The notes beneath the pieces are model-generated. The model searched no databases and was not told the DNA's origin. It was given only the letters and a program-made list of their open reading frames with translations. A stretch of DNA of 39,420 bases from a virus, in the IMG/VR virus record IMGVR_UViG_3300025594_000002; one strand, written 5' to 3'. The position numbers and the translations under genes are program-made. Shown in pieces: positions 4,621 to 8,929 of the stretch. Positions within the stretch are counted from its first letter, which is position 1; each line of letters starts with the position of its first letter.

Positions 4621-4725
4621 TTAATTTAAAGCTAAATACACATTAACAACTACCAGTGCAAATATAGCTATTGTGTAAAGTGCTTTGTGTGTTTGTATCT
4701 GGCCCTGGGTTCGTGTTGGTTTCAT
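4621..4725 (-). CDS. Small hydrophobic peptide (34 aa), single predicted TM segment.
   Basis: Hand-translated as MKPTRTQGQIQTHKALYTIAIFALVVVNVYLALN. The ATG is preceded by the same AGGAGAGGATT Shine-Dalgarno string as the next gene. Confidence 0.4.
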   Translation of the reverse strand: MKPTRTQGQIQTHKALYTIAIFALVVVNVYLALN

Positions 4726-4760
4726 AATCCTCTCCTGTTTATACTGTTAGTTTTGTTAAT

Positions 4761-5072
4761 CTAAAATAGTCTTATCTGCCTGCTTTCTTCATCTGATTTT
4801 TCATTTTTTACAACATGATACCAGTGGCTAACGTGAGGCTGAAATCCTAGAGCGTATAAAGGCAAATCATTATTTAATATCGCCATAGCTATTGCCTTGT
4901 AGCTAGGAACTCGCATTGACTTCATTAATCCGGTTGGTACCTCGTCTGGGATTCCGTCAGGATAACAGCGATCCTCCCATACTTGCTCGTAACTTTTTAC
5001 TCTCGATATACATGTTCTCCCATGATGATATTGCTCTGATTGCTTCCTTATTTGCCAAATATTGTTGCTCAT
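4761..5072 (-). CDS. Conserved phage protein, C-terminal module. Probably the downstream half of a gene split from 4957..5370 by a 1-nt frame change.
   Basis: 103-aa ORF overlapping the upstream ORF by 116 nt in another frame. PSYKAIAMAILNNDLPLYALGF resembles the C-terminus of the IbrA-like protein. Confidence 0.5.
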   Translation of the reverse strand: MSNNIWQIRKQSEQYHHGRTCISRVKSYEQVWEDRCYPDGIPDEVPTGLMKSMRVPSYKAIAMAILNNDLPLYALGFQPHVSHWYHVVKNEKSDEESRQIRLF

Positions 5073-5370
5073 AATTTAAGTTCTTCCAAGCTTGTCTTGT
5101 TATATCTTCAGGAATGCCCAAGGCCAACGCAACAGCGGCATGACCAATCCACGCTTTTCTGTTCATATAATAATCAGTTAATGCGTTTTCGCAACTAACA
5201 GGCCATTCATTTACAACTTTAGTCATATAGAAACCGTATAACTTGTGGCTTCCAGTGAAATCAATAGCGATTAATGTTGATCTCTTTCTGTCAGAGACAG
5301 TGCCCCACATATTGTGCGGCACCTCCTCCCATTTATAATATGGGTGCCAAACCCTTTTAAACTTCCTCAT
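4957..5370 (-). CDS. Conserved phage protein, N-terminal module (see the frameshift finding).
   Basis: 137-aa ORF translationally coupled to the ParB-like gene by a 14-nt overlap. The frame ends 12 codons after an A5 run. Confidence 0.6.
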   Translation of the reverse strand: MRKFKRVWHPYYKWEEVPHNMWGTVSDRKRSTLIAIDFTGSHKLYGFYMTKVVNEWPVSCENALTDYYMNRKAWIGHAAVALALGIPEDITRQAWKNLNYEQQYLANKEAIRAISSWENMYIESKKLRASMGGSLLS

Positions 5371-5884
5371 CGTTCTCTATCGACCACGATTCAGAGAAGT
5401 CTTTATTTTGAAATAGTGATGCCAAACCGGTTATCTGCTTAAGCCTTAGCAGCTCATCTGCACTCATCCCTATGTGCTGGCATATCCATCTATCGCCTTT
5501 ACCCATCTCGACAAGCTCAGAAACTATCGTGCTCATCAGCTCTATGTTGTGCGATCCTCTAGCCCTGTTATGCCTAATCGTTGATGCCATCCTATCGTGC
5601 ATTTCTTTGTCAAGAACAACACAAGGCAACACACCGCCTTCACGCTCTAAAATTCGCTTTGAGTTTTTAAGCGTTAAGAACCTATGGAATCCATCTATAA
5701 CAACATATTTATCATTCTCCTTGTCATAAACAGTTACTACTGGCTGTGTATACCCATCCTCCCAAATTGAAGTTTCTAGCAATGCCATTTCTGGAGGCGC
5801 AACGCTGTTTGGGTTGTAATCGTTCGCTGTTACTTTTTCAATTGGCACTGGTATAACGTTATACACTGGTGATTTATAAGTCAT
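5357..5884 (-). CDS. ibrB: ParB/Srx N-terminal-domain protein (IbrB-like).
   Basis: ParB-type motif VVIDGFHRF and TIRHNRARG. I chose the start at ATG 5884 (MTYKSP...) because GGGAG lies 8 nt upstream and it directly follows the stop of the previous gene. The ORF track extends it to 5941. Confidence 0.75.
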   Translation of the reverse strand: MTYKSPVYNVIPVPIEKVTANDYNPNSVAPPEMALLETSIWEDGYTQPVVTVYDKENDKYVVIDGFHRFLTLKNSKRILEREGGVLPCVVLDKEMHDRMASTIRHNRARGSHNIELMSTIVSELVEMGKGDRWICQHIGMSADELLRLKQITGLASLFQNKDFSESWSIENDEEV

Positions 5885-5885
5885 A

Positions 5886-6275
5886 TTAATTACTCCCATC
5901 AGTTGAGTATGAACCATCTTCTCTGTGCGTCTCTCTTGCAATTAGCGGAGGATTCCAAGAACATAGTAGCGTGGTTTCTTCCATAGCTTGAAAATAATGC
6001 GGATCGTTTTTATCAAGAATATAGGTGTCGCCTTCTCTTATCCAATGCTCATGCCCAGTCTTTGCGCATGTCAGTATTGCCAAGCCCTTTATGCAATAGC
6101 ATGCCTCAAGGTGGTTTTTATAATGCTGAAACACTTTGCCAGCTTCTGGCATTATTGTTGTTCTTGTTAGTCCAAAGCCCATGCCATCCTTTTTCAATAT
6201 AATTCGCTTGCTTACACCAGCGTGAAAATCAACTACTCTATCTTTCTCTAAATTAGCATGATTAACTATTTTCAT
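5886..6275 (-). CDS. Ectoine-synthase-like cupin (EctC family).
   Basis: 129 aa. HYKNHLEACYCIKG, GDTYILDKNDPH and ETHREDGSY line up with the EctC signature HYKHHFEAVYCIEG...GDIYILDQHDEH...EVHREDGSY, as I recall the Halomonas EctC. Confidence 0.75.
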   Translation of the reverse strand: MKIVNHANLEKDRVVDFHAGVSKRIILKKDGMGFGLTRTTIMPEAGKVFQHYKNHLEACYCIKGLAILTCAKTGHEHWIREGDTYILDKNDPHYFQAMEETTLLCSWNPPLIARETHREDGSYSTDGSN

Positions 6276-7597
6276 TTTTTATCTCCAAGTACTTTGTATT
6301 TTTCCATTATGGCGCGTTGCCTTTTTGCTTGTGTGTGAGTTGGCTGTAATCCCATATACTTGCACGTGTGGTCATTCTTTAAGATTGTTATTGCAAATCT
6401 TTTCCAGCTTGTAACGTTGCTGTTGTTTTTCTTCATCCCGTCAACATGGTCAGGCGGAACAGGTATTCTAACTCTTAGCAGGCTTTTAGACCCGTGAGGG
6501 GTTAGCCCGTTTATGTTAAACCTGACCCCATTTTTTGAAAGTTCACTTATTGTTTCATTATCTAGGCCGCGCCCCACTCTTGCCCAATATTTTATAGATT
6601 GAACGAAGCGAATTTTAAAATTTTCAGCAGACTCTTTAGGTAATGTCTCAAGAAGAAACTTAACAAAAGACTTCCACGTATGACCTTTAGGTAGGCTTAC
6701 ACTCTTGTAATCTAACTGTTTTCCATATGTTGCTACAAAATTTGCACCTTGAACCCTAGCGCAAAGTCTAGCCCATATATGCGGGTTTATAACTCGGTAC
6801 AAACTTAAACTTCCTTTTGCTTCACTCATAAACGGTGATGCAACCCTCATTGAATGAAGTGGTATTCCTGCTTTGTAAAAAATGTCGTAAAGCTCATTGT
6901 AGTTCCATTCAAACTTGTCATTAGCTATCCAAACATCCTCTGTTTTCCAATCGTAAACAGGATAAACATTGTAAGTGTGTTCGGTATTCTTTTTTGTCCA
7001 CGGCTTACCGTCGACCATTTGTTTTCTTTCGTTCATTATCGCTCTGAAGCGGTTTAGGCTTTCCTGGGTTCTAATCCCTATCATATTCGCGCAAGACTTG
7101 CCTTGACTGTACCATTCAGCGAACATATCCCAAAAATGGTCATACTGCATATCTTCTTCAAACAAATCACCAAATGGATGGTTATCTATATTCACAATAT
7201 AATCATCTTCAAACATCGGCCTTATCCATCTATGCTTGTCTCTTTCGCCCCAACACTGCCAATCCATGTGATACGCGGAAACTGTGCAAGGTAATGTTAT
7301 TGGTAGACAGCACCAATATATATCTAAAACGTCGCGGTTATCTCTCATCATTTCGTGCATAAACTTGATCGATTCATCATAGTTAGCTTCGTTATCCATT
7401 ATCTGAATGCCAAGCTTTCTCCCGTTTATTACGTCTGGATTTTCTTTCATGTACTTAATCGCTAAATTAAGCATTACACCAGAATCCTTTCCGCCAGAAA
7501 AAGAAAGATAAACCCTTTCAAAATTCCTCCAAGTAAAGTCGATACGCTCATAGGCAGCATCAAAAACATTTTTATTTTTATCCCACACCCTTTTCAT
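6272..7597 (-). CDS. ibrA: PAPS-reductase-family PP-loop protein with a long C-terminal extension (IbrA-like, DUF3440-type).
   Basis: 441 aa. PP-loop SFSGGKDS near the N-terminus. The C-terminal region with SWKRFAITILKNDHTCKYMGL is typical of IbrA-like proteins. Strong RBS AGAGGTGA. Confidence 0.8.
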   Translation of the reverse strand: MKRVWDKNKNVFDAAYERIDFTWRNFERVYLSFSGGKDSGVMLNLAIKYMKENPDVINGRKLGIQIMDNEANYDESIKFMHEMMRDNRDVLDIYWCCLPITLPCTVSAYHMDWQCWGERDKHRWIRPMFEDDYIVNIDNHPFGDLFEEDMQYDHFWDMFAEWYSQGKSCANMIGIRTQESLNRFRAIMNERKQMVDGKPWTKKNTEHTYNVYPVYDWKTEDVWIANDKFEWNYNELYDIFYKAGIPLHSMRVASPFMSEAKGSLSLYRVINPHIWARLCARVQGANFVATYGKQLDYKSVSLPKGHTWKSFVKFLLETLPKESAENFKIRFVQSIKYWARVGRGLDNETISELSKNGVRFNINGLTPHGSKSLLRVRIPVPPDHVDGMKKNNSNVTSWKRFAITILKNDHTCKYMGLQPTHTQAKRQRAIMEKYKVLGDKK

Positions 7598-8182: not shown

Positions 8183-8313
8183 TCTTTCTTATGCGCGGTT
8201 CGTATCATCTCGCTTACTATATCTTTGCGAGTCTTAACTAAGCTTTTGTTTGCTTTCCTGGTATCTACCAATTCAGCAAGTAAATTCATTTCGTAATTGT
8301 CTAACTTTACCAT
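8170..8313 (-). CDS. Small ribbon-helix-helix-like regulator (47 aa), first gene of the leftward operon.
   Basis: Hand-translated as MVKLDNYEMNLLAELVDTRKANKSLVKTRKDIVSEMIRTAHKKECNN. Beta-strand then two helices, the Arc/CopG pattern. Its position next to the palindromic operator fits a regulator. Confidence 0.45.
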   Translation of the reverse strand: MVKLDNYEMNLLAELVDTRKANKSLVKTRKDIVSEMIRTAHKKECNN

Positions 8314-8342
8314 TTTTGTGCCTTTAATTAGTTAACTTGAGC

Positions 8343-8357
8343 TAACTATAATAGTTA
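8343..8357. promoter_or_regulatory. 15-bp perfect palindrome TAACTAT-A-ATAGTTA. Candidate operator overlapping the -10 elements of both divergent promoters.
   Basis: Read directly. It lies in the centre of the divergent intergenic region. Confidence 0.5.
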
Positions 8358-8373
8358 ATTTAAAATAAATCAA
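8345..8373 (-). promoter_or_regulatory. Leftward early promoter (TTGATT-17 nt-TATAGT).
   Basis: On the minus strand, -35 is at 8373..8368 and -10 at 8350..8345, upstream of the RHH-like gene. Confidence 0.45.
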
Positions 8374-8381
8374 TTAAATAC

Positions 8382-8410
8382 TTGTAATTAATTTTAAGCT
8401 GGTCTAAAGT
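8382..8410 (+). promoter_or_regulatory. Rightward early promoter (TTGTAA-17 nt-TAAAGT).
   Basis: On the plus strand, -35 is at 8382-8387 and -10 at 8405-8410, about 30 nt upstream of the ATG at 8441. An alternative TATAAT at 8347-8352 lies inside the palindrome. Confidence 0.4.
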
Positions 8411-8440
8411 TTGGTTATCGAAATCGCAGAGGGTAAAATT

Positions 8441-8737
8441 ATGAATAAAGTAACAGATTACAACCACGCACATTCAATCAATCCTGATTCTGAGGAGCGC
8501 CCAAAAGAAGCGGTTATTGCCGCATATCGTGAAGTGTTCTTCGAGCTTGAAGTGGTAACAGTTGGCGGTATTGAAATAACACTAAATGACGTCTTAGCAG
8601 AAATATCCTTGAATGAATCAAATCAGCTTTTTACATTATCAATGCGCGGCGAGTCTGAAAAAGTAACTGAGCTAACTATTGAAATATTAACTAAACATGC
8701 TGAGAGTTTAATTATTGATGCTCTTGCAAGTAACTAG
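8441..8737 (+). CDS. Hypothetical early protein.
   Basis: ATG at 8441 with AGAGGG 7 nt upstream. The track's 8411 start is a TTG without an RBS. Confidence 0.65.
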   Translation: MNKVTDYNHAHSINPDSEERPKEAVIAAYREVFFELEVVTVGGIEITLNDVLAEISLNESNQLFTLSMRGESEKVTELTIEILTKHAESLIIDALASN

Positions 8738-8746
8738 GGGAAGGTT

Positions 8747-8929
8747 ATGAAAATACATGCTAGTGGTAAAGTTTTAATTGAAGGTAATGGTGCGGAGGCA
8801 ATTATTAATGCAGAGATTTCGAGGCCAGATCTTTTGATTGACGAAATCATCAACGAAAAAGGCATTGGCTATGTTCTTAATGCAATCGGTAGCGTTGCAA
8901 TTTTGGAATATTTAACGAGTAAGGGGTGA
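8747..8929 (+). CDS. Hypothetical early protein.
   Basis: 60-aa ORF with RBS GGGGAAGG. Confidence 0.55.
   Translation: MKIHASGKVLIEGNGAEAIINAEISRPDLLIDEIINEKGIGYVLNAIGSVAILEYLTSKG

Follow-up and report, generated by a model that had tools for sequence, protein, structure and literature searches.

An IbrA/IbrB-type phage cassette with an EctC-like cupin and a pair of overlapping genes

A five-gene cassette around an IbrA/IbrB pair

DndC and BrxP, both proteins of the PAPS-reductase fold, belong to DNA phosphorothioation systems (PMC10853773, PMC12839542), and the DNA-modifying enzymes DpdA and 5mYOX have each been proven to work with a ParB-type partner (PMC12839542, PMC13229309). The IbrA/IbrB pair likewise combines a PAPS-reductase-family protein with a ParB-type protein. 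No function has been assigned to the E. coli pair YbdNM (PMC9068703), and a literature search found no mechanistic paper on IbrAB, in agreement with an earlier model-made annotation of the DNA considered here (the sequence-only reading), which had credited the pair with no established biochemistry. Here, we describe a cassette in which such a pair is accompanied by three further genes, encoded in IMG/VR virus record IMGVR_UViG_3300025594_000002 (39,420 nucleotides (nt); this whole stretch of DNA is referred to as the window). The window is a nearly complete marine phage genome of siphovirus type, and the cassette consists of five consecutive minus-strand open reading frames (ORFs), which run from position 7597 down to 4761 and encode, in this order, an IbrA-like PP-loop protein, a cupin related to the ectoine synthase EctC, an IbrB-like ParB protein and two proteins termed A and B. 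The IbrA/IbrB pair itself is already known; the five-gene cassette, family A, the overlapping gene B and the link between EctC and ParB, none of which is described in the literature that was searched, appear to be new.

Re-derivation of the ORFs bore out the gene coordinates given by the sequence-only reading, with all genes on the minus strand, as well as its junctions: the IbrA and cupin genes overlap by 4 nt, a single nucleotide separates the cupin gene from that of ParB when the latter is taken to start at 5884, and the ParB and A genes overlap by 14 nt. That reading had counted four genes, the last of them a split gene; the actual number is five, and the 'split gene' is an overlapping, out-of-frame pair formed by A and B. 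The cassette was also said to lie among early and replication genes, and it is indeed part of a leftward early operon, in which it precedes an HTH_36 replication-initiator-like gene and DnaB, while replication and recombination genes surround it at every locus inspected.

Collinear IbrA–cupin–ParB–A–B sets were detected by tblastn with the five proteins in approximately 83 of the 91 loci fetched via protein A, and the same five-gene order was observed in 17 more loci of a second set (L092–L172). Synteny in other genomes had been proposed as a test of the sequence-only reading, and the gene set recurs collinearly in about 100 fetched viral loci. Using a looser pattern, protein A was confirmed at 584 places in a viral-contig collection, and 185,579 species-representative genomes yielded only five contigs, all of them from metagenome-assembled genomes. 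The cassette is almost exclusively viral. Its cultured carriers are Pseudoalteromonas phage XCL1123 and the mycobacteriophages Gaia and Nebkiss.

Four main arrangements were distinguished in L092–L172, namely IbrA–cupin–ParB–A–B, ParB–A–IbrA, A–B–IbrA–ParB and A–IbrA–ParB. These arrangements define a core consisting of IbrA, IbrB and A, with the B motif supplied in cis or in trans, whereas the cupin is specific to IbrA–cupin–ParB–A–B and most architectures of the core contain no cupin. Judged by gene order, Pseudomonas phage Amjad_SA appears to have the ParB–A–IbrA form.

IbrA, the cupin, IbrB and their variants

The first protein of the cassette had been read as a member of the PAPS-reductase family with a DUF3440-type tail and the motif SFSGGKDS, and this identity is supported by the presence of the motif and by matches to Pfam PF11922 DUF3440 (2.7e-57) and PF01507 PAPS_reduct (6.2e-11), both above their gathering scores, as well as by a match to phrog_2302 of PHROG (1.9e-106). 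IbrA homologues number at least 7,860 at E<=1e-10. Among 72 orthologues, S.SGGKDSG is invariant, and 166 of the 441 positions, the PP-loop included, are at least 95 % conserved. The N-terminal domain of the AlphaFold2 model (predicted local distance difference test score (pLDDT) 75) matches CysH, APS reductase, CysD and FAD synthase, followed by TtuA, NcsA, LarE and TilS, while a PDB sequence search returned no IbrA homologue.

IbrA scores under every curated cut-off for CysH, CysD and DndC. An identity as the PAPS reductase CysH was rejected, because the cysH models TIGR00434 and TIGR02057 give 19 bits (cut-off 165.1) and 16 bits (cut-off 254.2), respectively, and direct reading of IbrA showed that a C-terminal catalytic cysteine motif of the ECGLH type is absent; the CysD models give about 20 bits against cut-offs of 195–413. 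DndC was discarded on the basis of TIGR03183 (20 bits against 290.4), weak and partial PADLOC DndC matches (2.7e-6) and the absence of the partners DndA, DndD and DndE, and BrxP of BREX type 4 on the basis of the phage genome context and of PADLOC, which gave no BrxP match at E<=0.01. The links to DndC and BrxP drawn in the sequence-only reading thus hold at the superfamily level only.

Four cysteines of IbrA (C97, C104, C279 and C412) are invariant within the cassette lineage. The model contains three internal loops of low confidence, with C104 lying inside them and C279 and C412 lying inside or adjoining them. These cysteines possibly form a cofactor site, such as a four-cysteine Fe–S site, or a site on a mobile tail, but IbrA proteins that are shorter or more divergent do not retain both C104 and C279: the type II IbrA of L065 has neither, and the IbrA of L091 has no C279.

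The second gene had been described as encoding an ectoine-synthase-type cupin of 129 amino acids (aa), which is substantiated by its match to the Pfam Ectoine_synth family PF06339 (5.6e-34; 117.6 bits, above the threshold of 27); with the NCBIfam ectoine-synthase model NF009806 it reaches 118.2 bits, the cut-off being 128. The cupin can be aligned to the solved EctC structures 5bxx and 5onm–5ono. Its residues E57, Y85 and H93, which correspond to the EctC iron ligands Glu57, Tyr84 and His92, are invariant in 73 phage orthologues. The same invariance applies to Thr40, Tyr52 and Glu57 of EctC, by which the reacting amine and amide are held, and to Arg25, Ser23 and the C-terminal lid; in the cupin's own numbering, the kept pocket residues are S22, R24, T39, Y52 and E57. 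By contrast, EctC Trp21 and Asn38, which contact the aliphatic chain and the carboxylate of N-gamma-acetyl-diaminobutyrate (PMC6344544), are replaced by G20 and T37, at positions that are not conserved in the phage clade. As the reacting-group residues and iron ligands are invariant while Trp21 and Asn38 have been lost, the cupin sequence suggests that the attack of an amine on an amide, giving a cyclic amidine, is likely to have been kept, but with a different substrate.

In none of the roughly 100 loci are ectA or ectB found next to the cupin gene, which is flanked by IbrA and IbrB, and in the window no acetyltransferase or transaminase gene adjoins it. Neighbourhoods were looked up for two cupin homologues, of 47 % and 58 % identity, and both belong to the same cassette; all close homologues with examined neighbourhoods sit in an IbrA–cupin–IbrB–A–B cassette. 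Gene fusions link the cupin functionally to IbrB: L003, L021 and L036 (Gaia gp104) encode cupin–ParB fusion proteins.

The third protein had been taken for an IbrB-like ParB/Srx protein with the motif IDGFHRF; the motif is present, and the PHROG match (Table 1) upholds the assignment. Its likely start is the ATG at 5884, 1 nt past the cupin stop, which was chosen over the alternatives at 5899, 5917 and 5941 by comparison with orthologues beginning MSNFKSPVYNV and MSQFKSPVYNV. The Pfam ParB_N score is 19.9 bits, under the gathering score of 26.3, although orthologues do give PF02195 matches, and the protein also matches phrog_498, the ParB-type N-terminal part of DNA methyltransferases (1.7e-10). 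DGFHR and RMASTIRHNRARG are invariant in the orthologues, and the C-terminal half contains a helix-turn-helix (HTH)-like segment, GK.D.WI..HIGMS.DELLR.KQ. A partition ParB (CTPase) was considered and rejected, as TIGR00180 scores 16.4 against a cut-off of 58.45 and no ParA gene is adjacent.

Sister cassettes carry additional enzymes, which fits the multi-step chemistry suggested by the sequence-only reading: an EctD-like hydroxylase, a methyltransferase-like segment or gene, and GNATs. In L013, a single ORF of 499 aa combines the cupin, a methyltransferase-like middle segment (read from the sequence, with no Pfam match) and ParB; its cupin part, at 144 bits, passes the cut-off of the NCBIfam ectoine-synthase model (128), and the ORF is preceded by a gene for an ectoine-hydroxylase-like iron/2-oxoglutarate-dependent (Fe/2OG) enzyme (TIGR02408, 6.8e-51; PhyH, 6.4e-29; signature WHSDFETWH). 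The cupin gene is replaced in L091 by a methyltransferase-like gene (PF08242, 1.9e-06, just under the gathering score). GNAT genes occur within the cassettes of L125 and L135, and P0209 is a fusion of A with a GNAT. The locus of P0209, L092, encodes a Mom homologue three genes downstream (L092:6613–7224; PF25680, 1.4e-39) and, in the same replication-module neighbourhood as ParB, the A–GNAT fusion and IbrA, a protein with a faint Nmad5 match (L092:1021–1506), suggesting that several DNA-modification functions cluster there.

At a single locus, the cupin slot between IbrA and ParB is occupied by a 1-Cys peroxiredoxin (L010:3868–4617; PF00578, 2.6e-24, and PF10417), which is possibly an unrelated insertion or could be a hint of redox chemistry; it was not taken as a link to sulfiredoxin, because IbrB has no Srx catalytic cysteine (DGFHR) and one locus is concerned. 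Small inserts between cassette genes at four loci (Table 1) share the motif YxITYPNGKIYIGQ...GYNR and match Pfam GIY-YIG weakly (0.0035); from their sequences, they are probably homing endonucleases that target the conserved locus.

Table 1. Coordinates of the cassette features in the window and of GIY-YIG-like inserts in related loci
Feature	Coordinates	Strand	Basis or remark
IbrA-like PP-loop ATP pyrophosphatase (PAPS-reductase fold + DUF3440), 441 aa	6272..7597	minus	profile matches
PP-loop SFSGGKDS, IbrA residues 32–39	7481..7504	minus	direct sequence reading
EctC-like cupin, 129 aa, 4-nt overlap with the IbrA stop	5886..6275	minus	PF06339
IbrB-like ParB/Srx-fold protein, HTH-like C-terminal half	5357..5884	minus	phrog_2159, 1.4e-78
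Protein A, 137 aa, 14-nt overlap with the ParB stop	4957..5370	minus	all-alpha family, partner of IbrA and IbrB
Protein B, 103 aa, +1 frame of A	4761..5072	minus	paralogue of the IbrA C-terminal motif (by sequence)
A/B dual-coding overlap, 116 nt; B start codon 5072..5070	4957..5072	minus	
GIY-YIG-like insert	L021:2532–2852		
GIY-YIG-like insert (= Gaia gp105)	L036:5634–6008		
GIY-YIG-like insert	L054:4725–5042		
GIY-YIG-like insert	L118:1391–1666		

Protein A and the dual-coding gene B

Protein A is a new all-alpha family, widespread and without known relatives. Searches of Pfam, NCBIfam, PHROG and PADLOC placed it in no family, while its homologues number 631, the 120 of them that were listed being mostly about 136 aa long, and a profile search of 1.84 billion representative proteins returned 747 clusters at 50 % identity. 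AlphaFold2 predicts six helices (pLDDT 93), for which Foldseek found nothing in PDB and, in BFVD, only the XCL1123 orthologue; profile searches of proteins A and B against PDB sequences returned nothing. The motif W..SCENALTD...N.KAW.GHAA is invariant in the close family. Its Cys, Glu and His vary among remote members, on which account a structural or adaptor role appears more likely than catalysis. In many remote A-family proteins (P0127, P0145, P0153, P0155, P0173 and P0188), another C-terminal extension replaces B, with the conserved pattern G.PGW/LS.RDTRR...S.I..DM......ERF.F..PW.

In about 85 of 91 related loci, the +1 frame of gene A stays open over about 310 nt, from about 113–140 nt before the A stop to about 200 nt past it, whereas the +2 frame, serving as a control, is short. 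The earliest start codon that the +1 frame offers is an ATG, which occupies a constant position (about 85 of 91 loci) and has a purine-rich TGG-GGG, -AAG or -AGA 9–10 nt upstream. This ATG is made of codon 100 of A and the G of the invariant Glu101, and residue 100 is limited to Y, N, D, H and I, the first four being the amino acids of NAT codons. Such near confinement to NAT-codon residues suggests that selection acts on the start codon of B and not on the amino acid of A. The third-position entropy of the A frame falls from 1.49 ahead of the overlap to 1.00 within it, and over the last 17 codons of A it is position 1 that varies most. In the B frame, codons 1–20 track the constraint on A, from codon 21 the third position is the most variable, and the core of B outside the overlap shows a clean coding signal (codon-position entropies of 0.95/0.66/1.69). 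The codon-position entropies thus indicate that constraint passes from the A frame to the B frame partway through the overlap.

A motif common to the fourth gene and the IbrA tail had been noticed in the sequence-only reading and was recovered by hhalign, which aligns B residues 41–85 with IbrA residues 381–425 (93.9 % probability, E 1.5e-7). B further matches phrog_15645 (3.2e-5) and DUF3440 (0.01), and the B protein of L091 exceeds the Pfam DUF3440 gathering score. On these sequence comparisons, B is a free-standing paralogue of the IbrA C-terminal motif. In systems that have no B, such as L065, IbrA is short and ends in a canonical B-like tail, W..GYPDGIPDE..VPSWR..LLRND..C; in systems with a separate B, it is approximately 25–40 aa longer and an insert splits the tail motif.

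The out-of-frame overlap of the two ORFs, together with the in-frame A–B fusions found in the remote relatives P0123, P0149 and P0177, could also be read as the trace of a single gene broken by a frameshift, whether in a pseudogene, by a sequencing error or through a programmed +1 frameshift that yields an A–B fusion. This is very improbable. About 85 of 91 divergent loci share the arrangement, with A identities down to 52 %, B possesses its own conserved ATG preceded by the purine-rich stretch, and B is separate from A or barely overlaps it in L090 and several type III loci. Moreover, the distance between the A stop and the B ATG varies by locus between 110 and 140 nt, so that no conserved shift site exists. 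A split pseudogene or sequencing error was accordingly rejected on the conservation across loci, and a programmed +1 frameshift at the A stop, upstream of which the window has a Shine–Dalgarno (SD)-like GGAGGA, was dropped because neither the position nor the context of the stop is conserved; low-level formation of an A–B frameshift fusion alongside separate A and B proteins is possible.

Gene callers usually skip B. In XCL1123 (L001, MN313256; positions 8243–8855), the GenBank version of A starts internally (116 aa) and B is unannotated. In Gaia, gp107 (L173:5383–5583) has an annotated start about 14 nt before the end of gp106 and omits the conserved Tyr28 and the invariant Trp32; the real B gene of Gaia is probably a longer overlapping ORF, with its ATG about 101 nt before the gp106 stop.

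Possible functions of the cassette

The reading that we favour, tentatively and as something short of probable, is that the cassette is an early-expressed five-protein module, with IbrA, IbrB and A as its core, which may install and tailor a covalent nucleic-acid modification. It is suggested by sequence and by analogy: ParB-fold partners are known to serve DNA-modifying enzymes (DpdA/DpdB, and thymine dioxygenases with ParB), IbrB shows homology to the N-terminal part of a DNA methyltransferase family (phrog_498), the PAPS-reductase-fold conflict enzymes DndC and BrxP belong to phosphorothioation systems, the cassette is phage-specific, early and situated among replication and recombination genes, and the cupin is fused to a protein bearing an HTH-like half. 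The target would be either phage DNA after replication or a nucleotide precursor. IbrB, with its ParB/Srx N-terminal domain and HTH-like half, would bind DNA and position or activate IbrA, in the manner of the ParB partners of DpdA and thymine dioxygenases, and the PP-loop of IbrA would spend ATP to adenylylate an oxyanion or carbonyl on the target, allowing a nucleophile to replace it. Proteins A and B are presumed to be non-catalytic adaptor subunits, with B providing the canonical IbrA tail motif. The EctC-like cupin may then cyclo-dehydrate an acylamido-amine group on the product to a cyclic amidine, which in some phages would subsequently be hydroxylated, methylated or acetylated. The likely benefit would be the shielding of phage DNA from host nucleases or defence systems.

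A more specific form of this proposal, in which phage DNA would carry a so far undescribed hypermodified base or backbone adduct bearing an ectoine-like cyclic amidine (tetrahydropyrimidine) ring, is a long shot. The machine formed by the PP-loop protein, ParB, A and B would install the adduct, the EctC-derived cyclase would close the ring, and some phages would add an EctD-derived hydroxylase and a methyltransferase. If true, osmolyte-biosynthesis enzymes would have been recruited into nucleic-acid chemistry.

Several observations weigh against a modification module and are shared, in part, by its rivals. The active site of EctC is a deep tunnel with a lid, which suits small molecules (PMC6344544), and the phage cupins keep the lid motif. 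The solved structures nearest to IbrA (CysH, CysD and FAD synthase) act on small molecules, IbrB weakly matches SbnI and SerK, which are small-molecule kinases of the ParB/Srx fold, and its HTH was judged by eye, with no profile match. Small-molecule pathways just as typically include EctD-like, GNAT and methyltransferase enzymes, and the EctD-like and peroxiredoxin variants are represented by a single locus each. Taken in this direction, the cassette would constitute a small-molecule pathway that produces a free ectoine-like cyclic amidine or an adenylylated or phosphorylated derivative of it, with IbrA as an adenylyltransferase and IbrB as a kinase-like enzyme, and that serves host takeover, the osmotic fitness of the infected cell or the inhibition of host defence. 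This explanation is less than likely but is a serious contender. It accounts well for the intact catalytic core and lid of the cupin, for the resemblance of IbrA to CysD and FAD synthase, for the SbnI/SerK matches (ParB-fold kinases do exist), for the L013 cupin, which passes the ectoine-synthase cut-off (144 against 128) and adjoins the EctD-like hydroxylase, and for the GNAT and methyltransferase-like accessory genes, EctA being a GNAT. On the other hand, EctA and EctB partners are found beside the cupin in no locus, Trp21 and Asn38 have been lost, the fusions join the cupin to a ParB protein of which one half is HTH-like, most core architectures are cupin-free, and the cassette lies among DNA replication genes. 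A narrower metabolic reading, in which IbrA raises host sulfate assimilation as a PAPS reductase and the cupin is a true ectoine synthase, is scarcely credible. It agrees with the Pfam family names and with the XCL1123 gene, which is annotated 'PAPS reductase' and was counted as a sulfur-cycle auxiliary metabolic gene in a survey (PMC10232697). It is opposed by the scores of IbrA with TIGR00434 (19 against 165 bits), TIGR02057 (16 against 254) and CysD models (about 20 against 195–413), by the missing C-terminal ECGLH-type motif, by a cupin that falls under the EctC cut-off and has neither Trp21 nor Asn38, and by the obligatory linkage with ParB, A and B. The PP-loop ATP-pyrophosphatase motif of IbrA is, furthermore, intact, and PAPS reductases are not known to have it.

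The only reported phenotype of IbrAB, which is the activation of prophage eib genes and the source of the name (Sandt 2002, as cited in PMC10434257), also speaks against a modification module and suggests a co-activator instead. IbrB would then be a ParB/KorB-like DNA-binding regulator whose activity IbrA, A and B modulate via nucleotide turnover, switching on later genes. Database entries bear the name 'co-activator of prophage gene expression', IbrB has an HTH-like half, in XCL1123 the portal gene and structural module follow directly after the cassette, and SbnI, going by its NCBIfam name, is a ParB-fold protein that is both enzyme and regulator. Nevertheless, such a role is unlikely: it leaves unexplained an intact EctC-like enzyme fused to IbrB and the EctD-like, GNAT and methyltransferase-like additions, while the invariant PP-loop and the 166 invariant residues of IbrA point to catalysis. 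In the window, moreover, the cassette precedes replication genes rather than late ones, and a DNA modification could itself yield the reported expression phenotype.

Phages and enterobacteria very often carry IbrA/IbrB-type pairs, which are routinely mistaken for sulfur-cycle 'auxiliary metabolic genes' in annotation. The cassette offers handles on IbrAB in the form of the obligatory partners A and B, the EctC–ParB fusions and the variable tailoring enzymes, and it exposes a conserved, hidden overlapping gene missed by gene callers. As Gaia, Nebkiss and XCL1123 have been cultured, their DNA or metabolites are open to direct analysis. Should the product be a new DNA modification, the cassette would be relevant to phage–host conflict and a potential source of a tool enzyme.

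Neighbouring genes and comparison with described systems

Elsewhere in the window, genes for a terminase, a head morphogenesis protein, a major head protein, a tape measure protein, a holin, a dUTPase, an exonuclease and DnaB were recognised. A divergent intergenic region at 8313–8411 separates the leftward early operon, which comprises small ORFs, the cassette and replication genes, from a rightward operon that encodes a 233-aa protein without assignment, a 331-aa protein and SSB. In a promoter and terminator scan, sites were no commoner than in shuffled sequence, which also holds for the promoter-like hexamers on both strands of 8313–8411. Just downstream of B lies a short minus-strand ORF (4629–4727; MKPTRTQGQIQTHKALYTIAIFALVVVNVYLALN) with a hydrophobic C-terminal half and its own SD-like GGAGAGG, which lies ahead of the replication genes and, judging from its sequence, may encode a small membrane protein. 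In a megablast search against isolated phages, the window DNA had no match.

Among described systems, Dnd resembles the cassette in combining a PAPS-reductase-fold PP-loop enzyme (DndC) with a DGxHR protein of the ParB superfamily (DndB, with DGQHR) in a mobile-element conflict setting; the cassette differs in having no DndA, DndD or DndE and in being phage-borne rather than host-borne. The 5mYOX thymine dioxygenase/ParB and DpdA/DpdB systems likewise pair a phage or mobile-element enzyme with a dedicated ParB-fold protein, which in those cases is activating (PMC13229309, PMC12839542), but the enzyme of the cassette is a predicted PP-loop ATPase, not an Fe/2OG dioxygenase or TGT. With EctC (5onm–5ono, 5bxx) and 'orphan' EctC-type proteins, the phage cupin has in common the cupin fold, Glu57/Tyr84/His92, Arg25, Thr40, Tyr52, Ser23 and the lid. 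In contrast to EctC, it has lost Trp21 and Asn38, which are conserved in all 437 EctC proteins of ect clusters, falls under the NCBIfam cut-off, has no adjacent ectA or ectB and is embedded in, or fused to, an IbrAB module.

The closest relative is the IbrA/IbrB pair of the E. coli ECOR-9 island (YbdN/YbdM in K-12), in which a PAPS_reduct+DUF3440 protein likewise stands beside a DGxHR partner of the ParB/Srx fold; the same pair occurs in Streptococcus phages, for example D4276. Compared with this pair, the tail of the cassette IbrA is interrupted by an insert of about 40 aa and the canonical motif is provided in trans on B, while IbrB is parted from IbrA by the cupin only, within the same operon. 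To the known pair, the cassette thereby adds three conserved genes, encoding the EctC-like cupin, A and B.

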